From an uncultured Actinomycetota bacterium (GTDB taxonomy: Bacteria; Actinomycetota; UBA4738; HRBIN12): a stretch of DNA of 64,000 bases. The position numbers and the translations under genes are program-made. Location of the stretch: the NCBI GenBank assembly GCA_963839395.1, contig CAWIUW010000015.1, forward strand, positions 333,104 to 397,103. The letters are read 5' to 3'. Under the pieces are notes generated by a model that worked only from the letters and a program-made list of their open reading frames with translations, did no database searches and was not told where the DNA came from. Shown piece by piece: positions 4,567 to 23,961 of the stretch (within the stretch, counting starts at the first letter, position 1; every line of letters starts with the position of its first letter).

Positions 4567-5352
4567 ATGAACGCGATGCCACGCCGCCTCCTGCTCTTCG
4601 CCGTGACGGCCACCCTGGCCGCATGTGGGGGAGGAGCGACGGCGCCGGCGGACGTGACCCCACCGGCGGTCGCGACACCACGCTCCCGGCCGAGGCCGCC
4701 CGCCGATTTCCAGGCGTCCAGGCTGCTCGCGCGCGGCGGGACGCTCGTCGCCCTCGCGCGCGAGTCGGTACTCGGGATCCATGCGGCGCCGGGGACGGAA
4801 CGTCCGTACATGGGCCTCGACGCCGCGAATCCATGGGGGCAGCCCCTCCGGCTCCTCGTGGTCCGCGGCGCGAACGACGAGGACGGCGACGTTTGGCTCC
4901 GCATCCAGCTCCCGATCTGGCCGAACGGCCAGGCGGGCTGGGTCGCCGCCTCCGACGTGCGACTCGCCGAGGCCGACGAACGCGTCGTCGTCGATCTCTC
5001 CGAGCGGAGGCTCGTGAGGCTCCGCGAGGGCAAACCGGTCGCCCGCGTCGAGGTCGCCATCGGTTCGGCCGCGACGCCCACTCCGCCCGGGCGCTACTTC
5101 GTATGGGCGAAGGTCCGGACCGACCGCCCCTCCGGACCGTACGGGAGCTTCATCCTCGGGCTCTCCGGGTTCTCCGAAGAGATCGAGCCGTGGACGGAGT
5201 GGCCAGGTCAGCCGCGACTCGCGATCCACGGGACCGACGACCCGGCCGATGCGGGACACGCCGTGAGCAAAGGGTGCGTGCGTGTCCTGAACTCACTGCT
5301 CGGAGGGCTTCGCGACGTGCCGATGGGGACTCCCGTCCTCATCCAGCCGTAG
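4567..5352 (+). CDS. L,D-transpeptidase (YkuD domain) lipoprotein
   Basis: Signal peptide with lipobox (TLAACGGG). C-terminal HGT..S.GCVR catalytic motif. Confidence 0.8.
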   Translation: MNAMPRRLLLFAVTATLAACGGGATAPADVTPPAVATPRSRPRPPADFQASRLLARGGTLVALARESVLGIHAAPGTERPYMGLDAANPWGQPLRLLVVRGANDEDGDVWLRIQLPIWPNGQAGWVAASDVRLAEADERVVVDLSERRLVRLREGKPVARVEVAIGSAATPTPPGRYFVWAKVRTDRPSGPYGSFILGLSGFSEEIEPWTEWPGQPRLAIHGTDDPADAGHAVSKGCVRVLNSLLGGLRDVPMGTPVLIQP

Positions 5353-5399
5353 ACGCCAGCCTCCCGACGCAACTCCTCCGAGGGTCGTCCCTCCTCCAC

Positions 5400-5449
5400 T
5401 TGACACCTGATTCGAGGCACGGTAGTTTACCGTCTAGTTATTTAACTAG
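5400..5449 (+). promoter_or_regulatory. putative sigma-70-type promoter (TTGACA-17-TAGTTT) followed by a 16-bp perfect palindrome CTAGTTATTTAACTAG, a likely ArsR-family operator
   Basis: AT-rich island in a GC-rich background, immediately upstream of the AGGAGG RBS of the ArsR gene. ArsR/SmtB repressors bind inverted repeats that overlap their own promoters. Confidence 0.45.
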
Positions 5450-5457
5450 GAGGTTGA

Positions 5458-5859
5458 GTGGTCACACAGTCGGATCGGCTCGATCGCACGTTCGCCGCAC
5501 TTTCGGATCCCACGCGGCGAGCGATCCTCGGCCGTCTCGCCACAGGTGAGGCCTCCGTCACCGAGCTGGCGGAGCCGTTCGACATGAGCATGCCGGCGGT
5601 CTCGAAGCACTTCAAGGTGCTCGAGCGGGCCGGGCTCATCGTGCGCGGGCGGCAGCGGCAGTGGCGGCCCGCCCGACTCGAAGCCGAGCCGCTCAAAGAG
5701 GTCGCCGACTGGACCGAGCGGTACCGGCGCTTCTGGGAGGAGCGCTACGACCGGTTGGACGACTACCTGGAAGAGCTCCAGGGACGAGGAAAGGGCCCAA
5801 CGGCCCAAGGAAAGGCCAAAGGAAAGGGAAAGGGGAAGAACGATGAGCGCAAGCGATAG
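5458..5859 (+). CDS. ArsR/SmtB-family transcriptional regulator
   Basis: Winged-helix motif LSDPTRRAILGRLATGEASVTELAEPFDMSMPAVSKHFKVLERAGLI. AGGAGG RBS. Confidence 0.85.
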   Translation: MVTQSDRLDRTFAALSDPTRRAILGRLATGEASVTELAEPFDMSMPAVSKHFKVLERAGLIVRGRQRQWRPARLEAEPLKEVADWTERYRRFWEERYDRLDDYLEELQGRGKGPTAQGKAKGKGKGKNDERKR

Positions 5860-6337
5860 GAACCAGCTCGTGACGACGACTCCGTCGGATCGGGAGATCG
5901 TGATGACCCGGGTCTTCGACGCACCGCGCGACCTCGTGTTCGAGGCGCACACCTCGTGCGAACACATGTCGAAGTGGTGGGGCCCGAGGAAGTACGAGGT
6001 CGTGGACTGCGACATCGACTTCCGCCCGGGAGGCGCGTGGCGGGTCGTGCACCGGGGTCCCGACGGCGGAGAGATCACGTTCTTCGGTGAGTACCTCGAG
6101 ATCGTCCGGCCAGAACGCATCGTCTGGACGTTCGGGTTCGACGACAACCCCGGCGGTCCGGAGACCTACACGTTCGAGGAGCATGACGGCAAGACCACGG
6201 TGACGAGTAGCGCGGTCTTCCCTTCGAAGGAGATGCGAGACGAGGTGCTCGGGTCCGGGATGGAGTCCGGAGCCATCGAGACGTACGAGCGGCTGGATGA
6301 GTACCTCGAGGTCCTCCGGGGGCGCCCGACGAGCTGA
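5843..6337 (+). CDS. SRPBCC / AHSA1 (activator of Hsp90 ATPase homolog)-domain protein
   Basis: 164 aa. ArsR-AHSA1 gene pairs are common. The start overlaps the ArsR stop. Confidence 0.75.
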   Translation: MSASDRNQLVTTTPSDREIVMTRVFDAPRDLVFEAHTSCEHMSKWWGPRKYEVVDCDIDFRPGGAWRVVHRGPDGGEITFFGEYLEIVRPERIVWTFGFDDNPGGPETYTFEEHDGKTTVTSSAVFPSKEMRDEVLGSGMESGAIETYERLDEYLEVLRGRPTS

Positions 6338-6427
6338 CGAGAGGCTCGGGAGAACGCGCCACTGCCTAGCGCGGCATGGCACGGAGGAGTCCGGGCCGGC
6401 CATCCCCGGACGGTTATCGTTCGCACC

Positions 6428-9400
6428 ATGACGCGCTGCGCCGCCTGCGGGGCGGGCAACCCCGAGGGCGCGAGGTTCTGCAATGCCTGCGGAGAGCGCT
6501 TGGATGCGCCCCCCGCGTCCGGAACGCAGTCCGGCGAACGACGCGTGGTCACGATGCTCTTCTGCGACGTACGCGGATCGACCGCGATGGCTGAGGAGCT
6601 CGACCCCGAGGAGTGGACCGACGTCATGAACGAGGCGTTCGCCCACCTCATCGCGCCGGTCGTTCGACACGAGGGCACGGTGGCCCGTCTCATGGGCGAC
6701 GCGATCCTCGCCTTCTTCGGTGCGCCCACCGCCCACGAGGACGACCCGCAGCGCGCGGTGATGGCAGGGCTCGAGATCGTCGCCTCGATCGCCGCGCTCC
6801 GCGAGAAGGTCGCCCGGGAGCGAGGGCTCGACCTGAACGTCCGCGTCGGTATCAACACCGGCCCTGTCGTCGTGGGCGACGTGGGCTCGGAGCTGAAACA
6901 GGAGTACTCGGCGATGGGTGACGCCGTGAACGTCGCCGCCCGCATGGAGCAGACCGCGGAGCCCGGCTCCGTGCAGATCACGGAGGACACCTACCGGCTC
7001 ATCGCCGACCTCTTCGAGGTGGAGGCGCTGGGCGGCGTCGAGCTCAAGGGGAAACGCCGTCCCGTGGAGTCCTATCGGGTGCTCGGTCGCCTGGACGCTC
7101 CGTGGACCGTTCGCGCTGCTCGGCGCCTTGACGCGCCGCTCGTGGGACGTGAAGACGAGATGCGCGTGATCCGCGCCGCCCTCGAGGGCGCTCGCGAGGA
7201 TCGCGGACGCGTGCTGCTCCTGTGCGGCGACCCCGGTCTGGGCAAGAGCCGGTTGATCGAAGAGGCCAACGCGATCTGGTCGGAGCTGGAGCCCGGCGAC
7301 GATCGCCGCTGGGATTTCTGGCGGTGCGTCCCCTACGACTCGATGCAGCCGTACGCGCAATACCGCCGACTGATCAGCGAGCGCGCCGGCGTCAGGGAGA
7401 CGGACGCGGCCGAGACGGTGCGGATGAAGATCGCGGACCTGATGCGGGCGATCGCTCTCCCGGGTTGGGAAGAGACGAGCACACGGGTCGCGCGGGCGCT
7501 CCTCGGTGTGGAGCTGCCGGACGAGCCGCCGCTGGAAGGCGAGGAGTTCCAGCGAAAGGCCACGGAGCTCGTCGTCGGCTCGACGGTCGCCCAGGGGGGA
7601 CGACGCCTGATCGTCTTCGAGGACCTGCACTGGTGCGACCATGCCTCGCTCGACCTGGTCCGGGCGACGACCGAGCTGGTCGTGGACGCGCCGATCGTCG
7701 TCCTGATCTCGTTCCGTCCCGACCGCGAGGCCGTCTCGTGGGGGTTGCGCGAGTGGGTCGAAACCGATCTGGCGGAGCACGCGATCGTGCTCGACCTGGA
7801 GCCGCTCACGGCGGGGGAGAGCGACGAGCTCATCGGCGCCTTCCTCCCGGTCCCGGGGATGACCGAGGAAGACCGCCGCCGGATCCTCGGCAAGACGGAG
7901 GGCAACCCCCTTTTCCTCCAGGAGGTGGCGCGGGCGCTGATCGACGGCGGCCTCGTCGAGCGCGCGAACGGCGGGTGGCGGATGACCGGGGACGCGGCGG
8001 AGATCGCGATCCCCGACACGATCCAGAGCCTGATCACGGTCGGTCTGGACCGGCTGCCCGGGACGGCTCGCGGGACCGTGCAGACGGCCGCCGTGATCGG
8101 TCGGACCTTCGCCGAGGAGCTGCTGGTCGCCGTGGTCGGCCGGCCGGAGGTCCGCGAGGATCTGGACGAGCTGGTGCGCCGCGACCTGATCCGGGTGTCG
8201 GAGGACGGCGTGCAGGGCGAGTTCACGTTCCGGCACGCACTCACGCAGGAAGCCGCGTACGGCACGCTCCTGGCGAAGCATCGGAAGGCCACGCACCGCC
8301 GGGTCGCGGAGGTGCTCGAAGAGACCGCCCGAGAGCGCCTCGAGGAGGTCGCGCCGCTGCTCGTCCGGCACTTCTCCGAGGCCGGCGAGGACGAGCCGAC
8401 CCTCACCTACTCGGCGATGGCCGGAGACGCCGCGGCGCGCCTCCACGCGAACGCCGAAGCCGAGGCCCACTACCGAACGGGGATCGACGTGGCGCGCCGG
8501 ATCGAAGCGCCGCCGTCGCTCCTCCGGACGATGTACGAGCGGCGGGGCAGCGCGCTGGAGCTGCTCGGGCGCTACGACGACGCGATCGCGAACTACGAGG
8601 AGATGCAGGCCGAGGCCGTGACGCGAGGTGACGAGGCGATGGAGCTGGCCGCCAGCTCGATGATCGCGCTCCTGTACTCGACGGCGACGCCGAAGTTCGA
8701 TCCGCCGCTGGGACGTCGACTGTCGGAAGAGGCGGTCGTGATGGCGCGCCGGATCGGGGACCGTGCAGCCGAGGCGCGTGCCCTCTGGAACATCGTGGTG
8801 GCGAACGTCTACGGCGGAGGAGACGCTTCCCGAGCTGTGGAGGCGGGCGAGGCCTCCCTGGCGATCGCGCGCGAGCTGGGCGAGCGCGAACAGGTCGCGT
8901 TCACCCTGAACGATGTGACCCGTGCGTACATGTCGCGCGGCGACTTCACGACGGCTGCCGAACGCCTGGCCGAGGCACGTGAACTCTGGGAAGAGCTCGA
9001 TAACCGCCCGATGCTCGGCGAGAATCTCACGGTCGGCAGCGCGATGCACATGCTCCACGGCGACTTCGAGGCCGCGCTCGCCGACGCGGGACACGCCGCC
9101 GAGATCTCCGCCTCGATCGACAACGCGTGGGGTGAGTCGCACGCCCTGATCACGGTCTACCGCGTCGAGCTCGAGCTCGGGCGTCTCGGAGCGGCGATGG
9201 ACACGATCGAACGAAGCATGGAGCTCGGAGAGCGGGGTGGCTTCGCCTACGCGGGGATCGCCACGCGAGCCGATCTGGGGCGGCTGATCGCCTATCTCGG
9301 AGACGGTGAACGGGGCCTCGCCCTGGCCGACGAGTCGATCGAGGTCGCGCTCGAGCGCGTTCCTCCGGCTGCTTCCATCTCGCACGTTGCGCGCGCGAAC

Positions 9401-9934
9401 GCGTTGATCGCGCTCGGCAGGCTCGGGGAGGCGCACCCGCCTCTGGACCAGGTGGACCTGATGATGCTCCCCGAGCCCGATCGGACGTTCCTGATGGTCG
9501 CGTGGCACACGACGCGTTCGCGCCTCGCGCTGGAGGAGGGCGACGTCGACGAGTCGGAGGCGATCGCTCGGGGGCTCCTCGTCGATCTCAGGAAGAACGG
9601 AGTTCGGGTCCTCCAGTCCGAGGCGCTCGTCGCTCTCGCGCGCGCCCATATGGCGGCGGGACGGGACGAGGAGGCTGGCGCCGAGCTCGCTGAGGCGATC
9701 GAGCTCGCGGAGGAGCTGGGCGAACGCCGCGTGCTCTGGGAGGCACTCGCATGCTCCGCCGATCTTCACACCCGGAGAGGAGCCGAGCCGGAGGCGGCCG
9801 ATCTCCGTCGCCGAGCGCGCGCGATCGTCGGGGAGATCGCGGCAGGGGTGTCCGACCCGGAGCTCCGCCGACGATTCCTCGCTCGAGACGACGTCCGCGA
9901 CCTGGAAGACCGCTCCAGATTCGAGGAGCGCTAG
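6428..9934 (+). CDS. multidomain regulator: N-terminal zinc ribbon + class III adenylate/guanylate cyclase + AAA/STAND NTPase + TPR repeats
   Basis: [19 protein letters not shown] zinc ribbon. Cyclase motifs [43 protein letters not shown]-loop [10 protein letters not shown]. Long TPR-like C-terminus. 1168 aa. Confidence 0.85.
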
Positions 9935-10791
9935 ACGAAGAGCGGCGTCAGGGAGCGGCGCCGCACCAGTTGCTCCATGCGCTCGTCGCTCGGGCGCTCG
10001 CCGGCGGACCGCTCGGCTGCCGCCAGCACGTGCGGCAGGAGCTGCACGTCGCCGACCGTGTTGAGGAACACGCCCTCACGGCTGAGCACCCAGTGGACCG
10101 CCAGGTCGATATCTGCCGGATCGGTCAGCGGCTCGTACCACGTGGACGCGGTCTGCGGACGACCGTCCCAGGGCGCGAGCGCGATCGACTTGATCGTCTG
10201 TACGGCGACCCCGCGCTCCGCGCACATCGTGGCCAGGGCCTCGAACTCCGCCGCGTAGCGTCCGTCCTGCAGCTGGCGGAAGTTGTAGGGGAGCAGCACC
10301 GAGTCGAACGCGAACCGCTCGAGTGCGCGGCGGTGCATGGCCGCGATCGAGAGCCCATGCCCGGTGACGCCGATGAAGCGAACGATCCCCTCTTGTCGGG
10401 CTTCGACGGCTGCCTCCAGCGCGCCACCCTCGCGCAATGCGAACTCCCACTCGATGACGTCGACGAGGTTGTGCAGCTGAAGCAGATCGATGTGATCGAC
10501 ACCCAACCGCTCGAGTGACCGGTGGAGGTCCTCTTTCGCGCTCTTGTAGTCCCGTCCATCCGTCTTTGTGGCGAGGAAGAACTCGTTCGGGTGCCTCTTG
10601 AGCCACGACGCGATCCGCAGCTCGGAATCGCCGTAGGAAGCGGCGGTGTCGATGTGATTCACGCCGTGCTCGAGGAGGAGATCGAGCGTCTGCTCGGCGT
10701 CCGCGTGCGAAACGTCGCTCAGCGCCGCTGCACCGAAGATCGTACGGGTGCTCTCGTGGCCGGTGCCACCGAACGGCGCTTTCGCGATCAC
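9931..10791 (-). CDS. aldo/keto reductase family oxidoreductase
   Basis: 286 aa, typical AKR composition ([25 protein letters not shown]). Confidence 0.8.
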
Positions 10792-10807
10792 ATCGTGAGC
10801 CTATCCG

Positions 10808-11488
10808 TCACCTCACGGTGGGTGCTCGTTGGGTCAGGTATGCCTCGAGACGATCCGCCAGCTCCTTCGGACGGCTGAGAGCGGGGGTGTGTCCGCCGTC
10901 GATCTCGTCCGGCGTGATGCCCAAGCGCTCCTGGGCGACACGGCGGAGGAAGGAGGCCGGGAACACGCGGTCGTCTCGACAGAGCAGGACCCGTACGGGC
11001 ACCTCAGGCCACGCCTCGAGCGGGAGTGGCTCGTGCATGCGAGCCTCGGACTGCGCCCGTCCCCTCCTCAGCGCCTCGGACGCCAATCCCGGCGGCACAT
11101 CCTGATAGAACCACGCGATCTCGTCGTCGTAGCGATCGTGGACTTCCTCTTCGTACCTCGTGTTCCTCCAGTAGTCCGCGGGTGCCTCTCCGGGAGCGGG
11201 GATCATCGGTGCGACCAAGACGAGCAGGTCCACCGCGACGCGATCGCAGACGAGCGGAGCGGTGAAGCCACCCATCGACTGCGCGACCACGACCAGATCC
11301 GTCCGGATGCCGATCGAGTCGATCACGGCGTCGGCATACTCGGGCATCCCGGCCGCGTCGTCTTCACACGGAAGATCTGGGGCGACGGTGTCGTGGCCTC
11401 GCGCGCGCAGCTCGGCCTCCACCAGGTGCCAATACCAACCGACATCGCCGGCGCCGTGTATCAGGACGAACGTGGCCATCGTCGTCAT
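10808..11488 (-). CDS. alpha/beta-hydrolase fold protein
   Basis: MATFVLIHGAGDVGWYW..VVVAQSMGG nucleophile elbow. Confidence 0.75.
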   Translation of the reverse strand: MTTMATFVLIHGAGDVGWYWHLVEAELRARGHDTVAPDLPCEDDAAGMPEYADAVIDSIGIRTDLVVVAQSMGGFTAPLVCDRVAVDLLVLVAPMIPAPGEAPADYWRNTRYEEEVHDRYDDEIAWFYQDVPPGLASEALRRGRAQSEARMHEPLPLEAWPEVPVRVLLCRDDRVFPASFLRRVAQERLGITPDEIDGGHTPALSRPKELADRLEAYLTQRAPTVR

Positions 11489-11501
11489 GCGACCTCTCGA
11501 G

Positions 11502-11546
11502 TGGGCCCTCGGGGGACTCGAACCCCGAACCTCCGGATCAAGAGTC
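11502..11546 (-). repeat. degenerate copy of the 3' half of tRNA-Lys (anticodon arm through acceptor end), about 41/45 identity to the intact gene 650 bp away
   Basis: gtgggccctcgggggactcgaaccccgaacctccggatcaagagtcc versus tgggcccccggggactcgaaccccgaacctgcggattaagagtcc at 12159-12203. Confidence 0.6.
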
Positions 11547-11712
11547 CCAGAAACGGCGTTCGGAACAGTCCTGGTCTATCTGGGTCTCTTCCATTCCAGT
11601 AGGTCAGGATGTCCGTCGGCCGACCACCAACCCGGAACGTCCGGGAGCGGTTGTACCTTCACCGATGGACGGGCCGCTGCCGGTCTGGTGACGCCGAGTC
11701 TCGGAGGACGCG

Positions 11713-12126
11713 ATGAAGATGAAGGGACAACTGAACGTGAAGACCCCGGCCGAATACATCGCCGCCGTGGACGACAAGCGCCGGTCCGACATAGCGGCCC
11801 TCGATGCGCTGATCCGCAAGCACGCGCCGAAGCTCGAGCCGGTCATCATGGGCGGCATGCTCGGCTACGGGCCATTCCACTACCGCTACGCGAGCGGCCG
11901 CGAGGGCGACGCCTGCAAGCTCGCGATCGCCAGCAACGCCTCGTACATCTCGCTGTACTGCTTCGCCTCCGACGCGAAGGGCTACGTCGCCGAGCGGTAC
12001 GTCGATCGGCTCCCGAAGGCCGGCATCGGCAAGACCTGCGTGATGATCAAGAAGCTCGCGGACCTCGACGAGAAGGCGCTCGTGGCGCTCATCAAGGAGA
12101 CCGCGAAGATGGGCCTCGTCGCCTGA
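11713..12126 (+). CDS. DUF1801 (YdhG-like) domain protein
   Basis: 137 aa with good codon bias. N-terminal KTPAEYIAAVDDKRRSDIAALDALIRKHAPK is typical of the family. Confidence 0.65.
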   Translation: MKMKGQLNVKTPAEYIAAVDDKRRSDIAALDALIRKHAPKLEPVIMGGMLGYGPFHYRYASGREGDACKLAIASNASYISLYCFASDAKGYVAERYVDRLPKAGIGKTCVMIKKLADLDEKALVALIKETAKMGLVA

Positions 12127-12155
12127 GCCCGAGCGACGTCGGAGCGGCGGTCATG

Positions 12156-12232
12156 TGGTGGGCCCCCGGGGACTCGAACCCCGAACCTGCGGATTAAGAG
12201 TCCGTTGCTCTGCCGGATTGAGCTAGAGGCCC
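12156..12232 (-). tRNA. tRNA-Lys (anticodon CUU), with encoded CCA
   Basis: GGGCCTCTAGCTCAATCCGGCAGAGCAACGGACTCTTAATCCGCAGGTTCGGGGTTCGAGTCCCCGGGGGCCCACCA folded by hand. Confidence 0.9.
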
Positions 12233-12368: not shown

Positions 12369-12542
12369 GTGAGCATGACGCCAGAGCATCACCACCACGA
12401 TGAGGCAACCCCGGTCCGCGACCCCGAGGGCGGAAGCGGCCTCGTGGGATACGCGGCGATCAAGTACATCGCGATCGTCGCGATCGTGATCGCGATCCTG
12501 GTCTTCCTGGGGTGGTACCTGATCCCCGCGTTGACCGACTGA
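12369..12542 (+). CDS. small (57 aa) His-rich single-pass membrane protein, hypothetical
   Basis: GAAGGAGG RBS 7 nt upstream of GTG. VSMTPEHHHHDEATPVRDPEGGSGLVGYAAIKYIAIVAIVIAILVFLGWYLIPALTD. Followed by a strong hairpin. Below the 60-aa ORF-track cutoff. Confidence 0.4.
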   Translation: MSMTPEHHHHDEATPVRDPEGGSGLVGYAAIKYIAIVAIVIAILVFLGWYLIPALTD

Positions 12543-12576: not shown

Positions 12577-12613
12577 GAGGCGGCCGCGGCCCCGAAGGGG
12601 CCGCGGCCGCCTC
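12577..12613. terminator. perfect 17-bp GC-rich stem with GAA loop; candidate intrinsic terminator (possibly bidirectional)
   Basis: GAGGCGGCCGCGGCCCC-GAA-GGGGCCGCGGCCGCCTC, followed by GTCTCTC. Lies between the small ORF (+) and tRNA-His (-). Confidence 0.5.
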
Positions 12614-12622
12614 GTCTCTCAG

Positions 12623-12697
12623 GGTGACCGAGGGGACTTGAACCCCCAGCCTCCAGGACCACAACCTGGCGCTCTAACCAGTTGAGCTACGGCCACC
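12623..12697 (-). tRNA. tRNA-His (anticodon GUG) with extra 5' G(-1)
   Basis: GGTGGCCGTAGCTCAACTGGTTAGAGCGCCAGGTTGTGGTCCTGGAGGCTGGGGGTTCAAGTCCCCTCGGTCACC. Confidence 0.9.
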
Positions 12698-12763: not shown

Positions 12764-12779
12764 TTGAACGGCCGTTCAA
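12764..12779. promoter_or_regulatory. 16-bp perfect palindrome TTGAACGGCCGTTCAA 20 bp upstream of the aminotransferase start; candidate operator shared with 62158-62173
   Basis: The identical 14-bp core TGAACGGCCGTTCA recurs upstream of the saccharopine dehydrogenase-like gene at 62158. Confidence 0.4.
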
Positions 12780-12799
12780 ACAAGCGAGCCATCCCGGGG

Positions 12800-14185
12800 G
12801 TGGACGACCTGGCAACCAAGGAGACGATCGACTTCGACCTCGAGCTGGTCGACCGCTTGATCGCCGAGGAAGAAGCGTCGCTCGAGCCGAAGCACCGGGC
12901 CTCGATCGAGTACCGCGACGTGGCCGCGCGACATGTCGCCGGCGGGGTCGCGTCCTCGTGGCAGGCCTCGCCCCCACATGCGGTCTTCATCGACAGGGGA
13001 GCGGGCAGTCACATCTGGGACCTCGACGGGAACGAATACGTCGACTATCACCTCGGGTACGGCGCCATGATCGTCGGACACGCGCACCCCAAGGTCGTCG
13101 AGGCGATCGAGAAACGGGCCCGCCTCGGGACGCACTTCGCCCAGCCGACCGCTCAACTCCACGAGATCGGCGAGAACGTCGCGGAACGGTTCGGTCTGCC
13201 GCTCTGGCGGTTCTGCAACTCCGGCACGGAGGCGACACTCGAGGCGGTCCGGTTGATGCGGGCGAACACCGGCAGGGACATGATCGTGAAGATCGAAGGG
13301 ACCTACCACGGTCACCATGACTCGCTGATGTTCTCCGTCGCGCCGGACCCGGAGCTGATCGGCCCGCGCGAGCATCCCGTCACGGTGCCGCAGGCGATGG
13401 GGATCCCGCAGGCTTTCGCCGATCTGGTGCGTGTCGTGCCGTTCAACGACCTGGCCGAGGCCGAGCGGGCGTTCGCGGAGAACGACGGTCGTGTCGCCGG
13501 GATGATCGTGGAGCCGGCGATGATGAACTGCGGCGTCGTGCTGCCGCAGCCCGGCTACCTGGAGGGACTGCGCGAGCTCTGTCACCGACACGGGGCCTAC
13601 CTCGCCTTCGATGAGGTGAAGACCGGGGGGACGATCGCGTGGGGTGGCGCCGTGGAGGCGTTCGGCGTCCAGCCCGACATCGTCACGCTCGCGAAGGCGT
13701 TCGGCGGCGGTGTCCCGTGCGGGGCGATCGGCGCGACCGAGGAGCTCTTCGGGCCGGTCCTTCGAGGCGACCACGACATCGCCGGGACGTTCAACGGGAA
13801 CCCGCTCACGATGGCCGCGGCGAAGGCGACCTTGCTCGAGGTCCTCACACCCGATGCCTACGCGCGTCTGCACGAGGTCGACCGGGCGCTGAAGGACGGC
13901 CTCCGACCGATCATCGACCGGTATCGGCTCCCCGCGTACGTGACGGGGATCGGCGCGAAGGGCTCGGTCACGTACTCCCCGACGGAGGTCCGCGAATACC
14001 GGGACACGATCGGGATCGACGAGCGGATCAGCTACCTGGCGTGGCTGATCCAGCAGAACCGAGGCGTGTTCAAGGCGCCGTGGGCGAAGCAGGAGACCTG
14101 GACGCTCTCGGTCGCCCACTCCGACGACGATGCCCAGCGCTACGTCGACAACTTCGAGGAGTTCGCGGCCGCCGTCGCGAGCTGA
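12800..14185 (+). CDS. class III (PLP-dependent) aminotransferase, GSA-aminomutase/omega-aminotransferase-like, paralog 1
   Basis: HLGYGAMIVGHAHPKVVEAI, NSGTEATLEAVRLMR, DEVKTGG..(PLP lysine region), FNGNPLTMAAA. The start could be GTG 12800 or TTG 12764. Confidence 0.85.
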   Translation: MDDLATKETIDFDLELVDRLIAEEEASLEPKHRASIEYRDVAARHVAGGVASSWQASPPHAVFIDRGAGSHIWDLDGNEYVDYHLGYGAMIVGHAHPKVVEAIEKRARLGTHFAQPTAQLHEIGENVAERFGLPLWRFCNSGTEATLEAVRLMRANTGRDMIVKIEGTYHGHHDSLMFSVAPDPELIGPREHPVTVPQAMGIPQAFADLVRVVPFNDLAEAERAFAENDGRVAGMIVEPAMMNCGVVLPQPGYLEGLRELCHRHGAYLAFDEVKTGGTIAWGGAVEAFGVQPDIVTLAKAFGGGVPCGAIGATEELFGPVLRGDHDIAGTFNGNPLTMAAAKATLLEVLTPDAYARLHEVDRALKDGLRPIIDRYRLPAYVTGIGAKGSVTYSPTEVREYRDTIGIDERISYLAWLIQQNRGVFKAPWAKQETWTLSVAHSDDDAQRYVDNFEEFAAAVAS

Positions 14186-22493: not shown

Positions 22494-22582
22494 CTGCAGC
22501 CTCCTCTGATCCTCAACCTAGTCACTTGAGCGCCGCTCGTCAGAGATCTCGCTCGGTCAGCTACTTCAGGGCGCTCGTCACG

Positions 22583-22655
22583 CGCGCCGGGCAGGATTCG
22601 AACCTGCGACCTGAGGATTAGAAGTCCCCTGCTCTATCCCCTGAGCTACCGGCGC
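22583..22655 (-). tRNA. tRNA-Arg (anticodon UCU)
   Basis: GCGCCGGTAGCTCAGGGGATAGAGCAGGGGACTTCTAATCCTCAGGTCGCAGGTTCGAATCCTGCCCGGCGCG. Confidence 0.9.
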
Positions 22656-22709
22656 CGACGTCAAGCGTACGCGGAGCGAGCGGGTCTGGGTTAGATGAGC
22701 TGGGAGAAC

Positions 22710-23024
22710 CTAGGAGGCGTAGCCCGCCTTCTGTCGCACGAGCTCCTGGAGTCCGATCACGCTCGGAGACTCGATCCTCTCGGCATCCCGAAGGAGTGCC
22801 CGAAGGGACCCGAACCGTGTCCTCGCCCCGACCCTCGCCGAGTTGGTCAATTGTCTGACCTGGTCGAGTCGAACGACGGCCATGTCACCTCGCTGTTCGA
22901 TCTCGATCGAGCCAACGTCCGACCAATGTTCGATCGTCGCGACATCCACGTCGACCAATCGAGCAGCTGCCTCGACCGTCACCGACGCGTACTTGCCCAA
23001 GGTTCGTTCGAATCCATCCGTCAT
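22710..23024 (-). CDS. excisionase/MerR-superfamily helix-turn-helix DNA-binding protein
   Basis: VTVEAAARLVDVDVATIEHWSDVGSIEIEQRGDMAVVRLDQV fits the excisionase-family HTH pattern. Codon usage is slightly less GC3-biased than its neighbours. Confidence 0.5.
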   Translation of the reverse strand: MTDGFERTLGKYASVTVEAAARLVDVDVATIEHWSDVGSIEIEQRGDMAVVRLDQVRQLTNSARVGARTRFGSLRALLRDAERIESPSVIGLQELVRQKAGYAS

Positions 23025-23325
23025 GGCCGAACCATAGGGCAGGGGCGACCGGCACCACATCGGCCTTCGGGTCATCCTTCCCACCCGCCGGATGCCAGCG
23101 CGGGTAGCTCAACGTGGCCATGCCCGGACGGGGAAACGCAGCGCGTCGTGCGATGACGGGGTCGAAAAGCGGGTGACGGGGATCGGAATCCGCATCACCA
23201 GTTTGGACGGTGAGCCCATGCGACATCCTCGGCTGACCGCTCGGACGATGGCTCATCAGCGAGGTGTACAGTCCCGGCCGTGCGCGAGAGCTACGGCACG
23301 AAGTTGGACCGGCGGGGTCGTTGCC

Positions 23326-23961
23326 GTGAGCGATGAGCAGTTCCTCAACAGCTATCACAACGCGAGTACGCCTCCATCACCGGACGTGCCCGCCGACCTG
23401 GCGAACTTCATGCTCGCCGCGGATCCGGTCCTCGCGCAGGCGGCCGAACTTGCGAGGGTGATCACCCGTTCGCATCAGGGCGCCGCGACACACCTGATCG
23501 GCGAAGGGTGGGCGCACGCTCGGAAGTACTTCTCGCTCTCGGAGAAGTACGCCTCGTGGGCCGACTATCACTCGCCTGCGAAAGGTGTCGGGATCCACGC
23601 ATACGCCCACAAGGTGGACCGGCCGCTGCGACTGACGGATGAAGAGCTGCGGGCGCATCCCGAGTGGCGAAACTTCGGCGACGAGGTCGACGATCATCCC
23701 CCGATGCGGGGCTGGTTGGCGGTCCCGCTGATCGGAGCCGACGGCGAGAACTACGGCTTCATCCAGGCATCCGACCGGCTGGATGGGGACTTCACCGAAC
23801 AAGACGAAGCCAACCTCGCGAGGCTGGCGACCCTCACTGCAACCGCGCTCGACGCGTTGGCCCAGGTCCACCTACCGGAGTACCGGGCGAAGATCGCTTC
23901 TGCGCCTCCGAACGATCCGAACCTCGGCAAGGGGGAGCGAGGCCGCATCCGGGCTGGATGA
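23326..23961 (+). CDS. GAF-domain protein
   Basis: GWLAVPLIGADGENYGFIQASDRLDGDFTEQDEANLARLA. GTG start at 23326. Confidence 0.6.
   Translation: MSDEQFLNSYHNASTPPSPDVPADLANFMLAADPVLAQAAELARVITRSHQGAATHLIGEGWAHARKYFSLSEKYASWADYHSPAKGVGIHAYAHKVDRPLRLTDEELRAHPEWRNFGDEVDDHPPMRGWLAVPLIGADGENYGFIQASDRLDGDFTEQDEANLARLATLTATALDALAQVHLPEYRAKIASAPPNDPNLGKGERGRIRAG

Follow-up and report, generated by a model that had tools for sequence, protein, structure and literature searches.

An intact tRNA-Lys(CTT) gene and a 47-nt partial direct copy of its 3′ half delimit a 654-bp islet in a stretch of 64,000 nucleotides (contig CAWIUW010000015.1; hereafter the window, GC content 68%) from an uncultured soil actinobacterium. 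We consider it likely that the copy is the displaced original 3′ half of the tRNA gene, an attR-type scar, and that the islet is a decayed relic without integrase, comparable to a cis-mobilizable element (CIME). The islet and its borders consist of the following features, where labels such as L001 denote the compared loci or contigs:

11501-11547, minus strand: partial direct copy of the tRNA-Lys 3′ half, attR-like scar (alignment, blastn, nhmmer)
11548-11657, no strand: spacer of 110 nt on the insert side of the copy, found only in the lineage of L001 and L002
11658-12152, plus strand: DUF1801 cassette, i.e. the gene, about 55-100 nt of conserved sequence before it and about 26 nt after it (nucleotide homology)
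11713-12126, plus strand: gene of a DUF1801-domain protein of 137 aa (Pfam PF08818, E 4.3e-10; GC content at third codon positions 0.94)
12156-12232, minus strand: tRNA-Lys(CTT), intact (ARAGORN; Rfam RF00005, 64.3 bits)

The tRNA-Lys gene and its partial copy

The copy reproduces positions G29 to C74 of tRNA-Lys on the same strand and on the 3′ side of the gene, the two sequences having the same orientation and lying 656 nt apart. It comprises the 3′ part of the anticodon stem, the anticodon loop, the variable loop, the T arm, the 3′ acceptor strand, the discriminator and one C, and tRNA positions 1-28 are absent. Forty-three of the 47 aligned columns are identical (blastn, 91.5% over 47), and the copy departs from the tRNA by the substitutions A37→G, C43→G and G66→A and by an additional C in the T arm. 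The initial annotation had placed the copy at 11502-11546 with about 41 of 45 identical positions, which proved right within 1 nt. An exact 19-mer is common to the tRNA and the copy (0.02 occurrences expected in shuffles). Furthermore, a nhmmer profile of tRNA-Lys 3′ halves recovered the copy with an E value of 2e-13 and gave no further non-tRNA match in the 64-kb window. A resemblance by chance is excluded. The copy was not called a tRNA by ARAGORN or Rfam because its 5′ half is absent.

The tRNA-Lys gene itself is intact, as had been annotated, and is proposed to represent the target after its regeneration, at the attL end of the islet. Its region aligns with 81-87% identity over about 390 nt with close relatives (blastn), and its 3′ half is identical in the window and in the related locus L008 over the stretch read, with one substitution in the 5′ half. 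The DUF1801 gene is convergent with tRNA-Lys and is the sole credible gene between the tRNA and the copy, in agreement with the initial annotation. The latter had also noted that no integrase remains; indeed, none was detected within ±10 kb of the islet (precomputed Pfam tables, same contig), and tblastn with two tyrosine integrases gave no match in the whole window. The composition profile revealed no GC anomaly over the islet, and a scan for promoters and terminators gave no promoter-like site and two terminator-like sites where shuffles average 0.6.

The proposed sequence of events is as follows. A circular element would have carried an attP site mimicking the part of tRNA-Lys between the anticodon stem-loop and the 3′ end. 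Recombination of this site with the chromosomal gene by a tyrosine integrase, through a crossover between the anticodon loop and the T arm, would have restored a complete tRNA with the element's copy and displaced the old 3′ half to the far end of the insert. Later deletions would have removed the integrase together with nearly all else, leaving the 654-bp islet with the DUF1801 cassette as its only gene; the cassette may have arrived with the same event. Two changes in the copy, C43G and the extra C, may have inactivated the attR-like site. The first of them lies inside the CCGCAGGT motif that is repeated around related att sites.

The site in related genomes

The relatives comprised 80 loci of actinobacterial metagenome-assembled genomes (MAGs), retrieved by a genome scan anchored on the aminotransferase, and the closest relatives were those with an aminotransferase 90-93% identical. 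Read in the sense of the tRNA, the genes of the window follow in the order aminotransferase, tRNA-His, an open reading frame (ORF) of 57 aa, tRNA-Lys, DUF1801, spacer, copy, hydrolase, aldo/keto reductase (AKR) and 3′ end of the cyclase gene, the neighbours of the islet being:

6428-9934, plus strand: adenylate cyclase / AAA / TPR regulator (Pfam; synteny maps)
9931-10791, minus strand: aldo/keto reductase, AKR (Pfam)
10808-11488, minus strand: alpha/beta hydrolase, Abhydrolase_6 (Pfam)
12622-12696, minus strand: tRNA-His(GTG) (ARAGORN, Rfam, synteny)
12764-14185: aminotransferase gene, synteny anchor with tRNA-His

The synteny of tRNA-His, tRNA-Lys and the aminotransferase is widely conserved across the relatives, and the cyclase gene, also conserved, bounds the variable region. 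The comparison of empty with occupied sites shows that the closest relatives have either an empty or a differently filled site. The cyclase gene of L005 and L006 ends 72-85 nt from tRNA-Lys, i.e. the site is unoccupied. Other loci carry at this place a methyltransferase (L003), an unassigned 152-aa ORF (L007) or a PNPOx-like gene (L009-L013). L008 has PNPOx, AKR, hydrolase and a 386-aa protein, with neither a partial copy nor DUF1801. The flank of tRNA-Lys is hypervariable and layered: newer inserts adjoin the tRNA, and the older accessory genes (hydrolase, AKR) are further out.

AKR and hydrolase form an older accessory block. The block (9911-11479) shares 93.5% nucleotide identity with L008:6182-7750 and the flanking core only 78-81% (blastn); because of this difference, it appears to have been exchanged recently between the species of the window and that of L008. 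Both of its ends are tight, the stop codon of AKR overlapping the stop of the neighbouring gene, and it is absent from L003, L005-L007, L009-L011 and L013.

The window also matches two contigs of one organism in soil metagenome assemblies of ENA (L001 and L002). Compared with L002 and the window, L001 has its cyclase gene (4710-8219) split into several frames, probably by long-read assembly errors; differences of either contig from the window, those of the L002 partial copy among them, therefore call for caution.

The start codon of the hydrolase is located 13 nt past the 3′ end of the copy, on the same strand, and CTCGAGAGGTCGC directly precedes its ATG. The hydrolase is proposed to be the gene that once followed a tRNA-Lys end. 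Its proximity, and the largely intact T-arm hairpin of the copy, would also fit a functional tRNA-like element under selection, serving for example as an RNase P/Z processing signal or as a regulatory RNA upstream of the hydrolase/AKR operon. This explanation is hardly credible in view of the extra C in the T arm and the change in the acceptor strand, of the indels in the acceptor part of related copies, and of the copy in L002, which differs from that of the window at four positions (three substitutions, one deleted base). Moreover, the copy has no Rfam match, the 224-nt intergenic region shows an unremarkable fold (z -1.43), and L008 has the same operon without the copy.

Since the two tRNA-Lys-derived sequences have the same orientation and the four differences of the copy are consistent with decay, a tandem duplication of the gene was also considered, in which the distal copy lost its 5′ half and degenerated, DUF1801 having sat or landed between the two. 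This alternative, already raised in the initial annotation, is very improbable. Exactly one tRNA-Lys(CTT) is present in each of 64 related loci, and a tandem pair in none (0/64); two full-length copies were thus found neither here nor in the relatives, and the conserved intact pair that would have spoken for a duplication did not appear.

A second kind of mobile DNA was observed at this flank. In at least ten relatives (L017, L018, L021, L034, L038, L054, L060, L073, L077, L080), a shared terminus, TGTnTGGTTCCGCCTGACGCGTGAC, with 3-4 subterminal GGCTCCGsCTGA repeats stands directly downstream of the tRNA, 6-12 nt past the CCA end of tRNA-Lys. In L021 (8250-9680) it belongs to an element of about 1.4 kb with inverted subterminal repeats and a transposase ORF with HTH and rve domains (8396-9589, minus strand; IS481-like). 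The element looks as if it specifically targets the 3′ flank of tRNA-Lys, and it is not present in the window.

Recurrent partial copies of tRNA-Lys

Significant partial copies of the tRNA-Lys 3′ half were detected with the nhmmer profile in L021 (two copies), L048, L054, L067, L075 and L077. All eight copies, including that of the window, lie on the tRNA strand and on the 3′ side of the tRNA, 0.65-6.5 kb away. Their 5′ start falls at tRNA position ~29-32 in five, and those of L067 and L075 are too degraded there to be placed. A37→G occurs in five of the eight (window, L048, L054, L075, L077), and G37 was seen in no functional tRNA-Lys, bar one doubtful 70-nt ARAGORN call in L118. The same anticodon-stem boundary in independent copies disfavours a random truncation, and both this boundary, which coincides with that of integrase-linked attP sites as well, and the common G37 change argue further against a decayed tandem duplicate. 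These data, together with the differing inserts, uphold the earlier view of tRNA-Lys as a historical insertion hotspot, in the relatives and in metagenome contigs alike: the 3′ end of this gene is a recurrent insertion hotspot across an uncultured actinobacterial clade.

The variant of the T stem is exactly that of the local tRNA in four copies (L021b, L048, L075, window). It is mutated in three, and L067 has an extra T at the stem-loop junction. This distribution and the shared G37 fit copies composed of an element-derived (attP) 5′ part and a native 3′ part, and because of this composition we infer a crossover between tRNA positions 38 and 48.

An element-side arm of about 137 nt is conserved beside the copies of L021 (a and b), L048, L054 and L077, and has no Rfam family. 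It contains an inverted repeat, GCAGGTCAGAGG...CCTCTGACCTGC, and CCCGT repeats, and probably represents an attP P arm. Its positions are:

L021:3204-3340 and L021:6724-6860
L048:5968-6104
L054:8877-9013
L077:498-639
metagenome contigs: L093-L097, L100, L104-L106, L109, L110, L113, L114

The arm is widespread in soil metagenomes, where it adjoins G37 copies; the sample was selected by a G37 search pattern, all 29 matching contigs thus carrying G37 by design, and 20 of the 29 have the arm. The copies of L021 have A37.

The sequence on the other side of the copies was also informative. A native flank of 100-135 nt follows tRNA-Lys in L046, L047, L048, L061, L068 and L078, and the same sequence follows the partial copies of L091, L093, L097, L101 and L102/L111. 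Such an arrangement, observed in a sister clade, is expected if the native 3′ end was displaced. The order in L091 is tRNA-Lys, 165 nt, partial copy and native flank.

An assignment of the conserved downstream sequence as the P′ arm of the element was dropped, for of the six loci where it follows tRNA-Lys, five lack a partial copy (the sixth, L048, has one). A search upstream of the partial copies for the tRNA 5′ half, as expected of an intron-containing or split tRNA, was positive only at loci with a normal tRNA-Lys.

Two further islets contain a single gene: L054, with tRNA-Lys, a glyoxalase gene, the arm and the copy, and L108, with tRNA-Lys, one lipoprotein-like ORF and the copy. In addition, metagenome contig L118 (Ga0209874_1013318) carries at 574-643, as oriented, a 5′-truncated tRNA-Lys-like sequence with G37, which is the 70-nt tRNA of ARAGORN. 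Remnants of a homolog of the window's hydrolase follow at 700-1050, in the same copy-then-hydrolase adjacency as in the window. The tRNA-Lys-like sequence of L118 is preceded by an ORF that resembles a PIN domain (by sequence, no Pfam scan).

Integrase-linked attP-like sites

Partial tRNA-Lys(CTT) copies starting in the anticodon loop, with no full tRNA, were found in L083 (a viral 39-kb contig of IMG/VR), L128 and L129. Each is located 340-490 nt upstream of a tyrosine integrase gene (PF00589) whose product shares 66-100% identity with the L083 protein. In L083 and L128, a GCAGGTCAG-type motif precedes the copy by about 50 nt; only GCTGGTCAAGG is present there in L129. The sequence TCTGACC(T/A)G after CACC is shared by all three. 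The attP motif, which reads GCAGGTCAGAGG in L083 and GCAGGTCAGG in L128, was not seen in L129; it recurs with a spacing of 35-38 nt in the conserved arm beside the chromosomal copies. Besides, the C-terminus of an integrase is located 235 nt from a G37 copy in L115. These findings link scars of this kind to a family of tyrosine integrases.

The spacer of the window is not tied to the L083-type integrase family. It has no homology in any other fetched locus and is unrelated to the arm, apart from GTAGGTCAGG (~11600-11609), which agrees at 9/10 positions with the GCAGGTCAGG motif seen in related att arms; this match is weak and was noted post hoc.

No tyrosine recombinase was found near the tRNA in any of the 64 loci (0/64), tblastn for tyrosine integrases was negative in all tRNA-Lys loci and the long metagenome loci except L115, and a manual review of the ORFs of eight long loci revealed no integrase. 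Viral-contig scans aimed at the element-side junction or at the G37 variant gave nothing useful: the match in L119 was a chance 18-mer in coding DNA, and those in L120-L123 were phage tRNA-Lys(TTT) clusters.

The DUF1801 cassette

The DUF1801 protein has 1190 homologs at E<=1e-10, and homologs with 82-96% identity are plentiful in soil metagenomes. At the nucleotide level, the cassette has sharp boundaries, its homology ending 4 nt short of the tRNA-Lys 3′ end, and occurs with 89-95% identity in at least seven genomic contexts:

window: the tRNA-Lys islet
L015:12753-12921: beside an HTH gene near tRNA-Arg(TCT)
L084-L086: in the order DUF1801 / RibD_C / tRNA-Ala(TGC) / integrase
L088: adjoining RibD_C
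L089: between SDR and methyltransferase
L125, L126: beside tRNA-Arg(CCT)
L124: after an ABC-ATPase-like ORF

Four of these contexts are within ~700 nt of a tRNA gene (Lys-CTT, Arg-TCT, Ala-TGC and Arg-CCT). Given its many settings, DUF1801 may be a later arrival in an islet already present and not the original cargo of the event that made the copy.

One could go further and regard the 3′ end of tRNA-Lys(CTT) in this soil clade as a platform for the capture of cassettes. Phage-type tyrosine integrases of the L083/L128/L129 family would there act in trans to insert, stack and exchange mini-elements without integrase, each made of one gene, a short arm and a tRNA-half att site. We hold this scheme to be unlikely. 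If true, it would explain the single-gene islets (DUF1801 here, glyoxalase in L054, the lipoprotein-like ORF in L108) and the nearly empty one of L091, the integrase-free state of every occupied locus examined, and the presence of the DUF1801 cassette beside four different tRNA genes.

Weighing of the integration scenario

Several observations weigh against an origin of the islet by tRNA-targeted integration and decay. No integrase or recombinase was found in the window or in about ten occupied loci (serine recombinases were not specifically searched), and the islet falls well below the size of any functional integrative element. The spacer of the window lacks homology to the 137-nt arm conserved beside the other copies, and this arm was not found in the window. 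The hydrolase/AKR block is present in L008 without a partial copy. In L003 an insertion lies 30 nt beyond the tRNA end, and therefore not all variation here is tRNA-targeted; the IS481-like element also targets the tRNA-Lys flank in relatives. Finally, the DUF1801 cassette, sharply bounded in its seven or more unrelated contexts, could have come into an older islet by another route. Because it is a small cassette with so many settings, the insertion that made the copy is uncertain.

Some of these facts would suit a different origin, namely import of the copy within foreign DNA (for example a block of pseudo-tRNA, hydrolase and AKR, whose donor would have a tRNA-Lys end ahead of the hydrolase), or a RecA-dependent single crossover of circular DNA at the short stretch of tRNA homology, neither of which needs a dedicated integrase. 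The recent exchange of the hydrolase/AKR block with L008, the truncated G37 tRNA-Lys-like sequence followed by hydrolase remnants in L118, and the lack of an integrase in all occupied loci are in favour of it. However, the block of L008 has no copy, and its homology to the window ends 22 nt before the copy. Besides, homologous recombination is inefficient over as little as 46 nt, and the shared boundary and conserved att-arm motifs of the related copies point to site-specific recombination. We thus judge this explanation unlikely, and retain the attR-type scar of a lost element as the preferred one.

The initial interpretation of the islet as a relic of tRNA-targeted integration is supported by the relatives, by the recurrence of the copies and by the integrase-linked attP sites. 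It had to be refined in two respects: the variable region is larger and layered, with AKR and hydrolase being accessory too, and DUF1801 need not be the original cargo because its cassette occurs in many contexts.

Comparison with known systems

An intact tRNA gene with a 3′ fragment on the same strand and on its 3′ side is the signature that defines tDNA (tRNA gene) islands, of which 3760 of 3919 have the 3′ fragment and 2083 an anticodon-centred attP; a displaced native 3′ end is their classical picture (PMC4383910). The islet resembles the Islander tDNA islands with a tyrosine integrase and an anticodon-centred 'A' attP in that an intact tRNA and a 3′ fragment in direct orientation mark its ends. 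The identity block runs likewise from the anticodon region to the 3′ end, and tandem arrays are found in the relatives (L021, two copies). The window thus has an intact tDNA and a fragment on the same replicon, in direct orientation and on the expected side, with an unoccupied site in relatives. In contrast to these islands, its interval is 654 bp long with no integrase gene (PF00589) inside, and would not pass the integrase filter of Islander. The islet is filed as a relic of the tDNA-island kind and not as an island because the internal integrase is lacking.

A CIME is an integrase-less remnant that keeps attL and attR without genes for integration and transfer, and new elements can be added beside the target gene by accretion (PMC5704250). 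The islet has this structure, with two att-like ends kept and no such genes. Like the CIMEs of Streptococcus, which are decayed remnants of integrative and conjugative or integrative and mobilizable elements, the region is layered, with the newest insert adjoining the target tRNA. The likeness is structural: the host here is an uncultured actinobacterium, and the attR-like copy is changed (C43G, extra C).

The actinomycete integrative element pSAM2 integrates in tRNA-Pro and mycobacteriophage L5 in tRNA-Gly, both by tyrosine integrases, the identity of attP and attB running from the anticodon loop to the tRNA 3′ end. The attP sites beside the integrases of L083, L128 and L129 have the same layout. 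In the window, however, the target is tRNA-Lys(CTT), and no replication, transfer or phage genes remain.

The single small genes located between a fixed point and a repeated site (DUF1801; glyoxalase, L054; lipoprotein-like ORF, L108), with the newest insert nearest the insertion point, also recall integron cassettes, by resemblance only. Unlike an integron cassette array, the window has no IntI-type integrase and no attI, and the repeated site is a tRNA fragment with an arm and not the attC that ends such cassettes (no attC models were run).

The islet is an ordinary, well-known kind of genomic scar, and the present understanding of integration is unchanged. The finding accounts for a small accessory islet of an uncultured soil actinobacterium and sets the edge of the hypervariable region that extends between the cyclase gene and tRNA-Lys. 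On a wider scale, dozens of MAG species have the same tRNA-Lys(CTT) gene as an insertion hotspot. The signature of the scars (G37, the conserved 137-nt arm and the GCAGGTCAGAGG motif) can be used to delimit islands and to pair an integrase family with its attB, and aids island annotation and the search for new integrases.

Other features of the window

The ORF between tRNA-Lys and tRNA-His (12369-12542) encodes a His-rich product of 57 aa with a C-terminal hydrophobic segment and no Pfam match. It is 81-91% identical in the nearest relatives, and in most other relatives the gap between the two tRNA genes is only 22-59 nt. A perfect 17-nt inverted repeat (GAGGCGGCCGCGGCCCC gaa GGGGCCGCGGCCGCCTC) is present at 12577-12613, between this ORF and the 3′ end of tRNA-His. 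It aligns in L003, L005, L008 and L015 and is probably a bidirectional terminator hairpin. It gives weak sub-threshold Rfam matches to Pxr and sbcD; apart from these two hairpin-caused matches, Rfam detected only tRNAs in the window region, L021 and L054.

Farther away, the window contains at 22582-23961 tRNA-Arg(TCT), a small ORF (22710-23084, minus strand) and then the gene of a GAF-domain protein. The small ORF has no Pfam match and looks by sequence like a MerR/excisionase-type HTH protein. In L015 (12075-12921) the DUF1801 cassette sits where the window has the GAF gene, and the flank of tRNA-Arg(TCT) looks like another tRNA-proximal variable spot.

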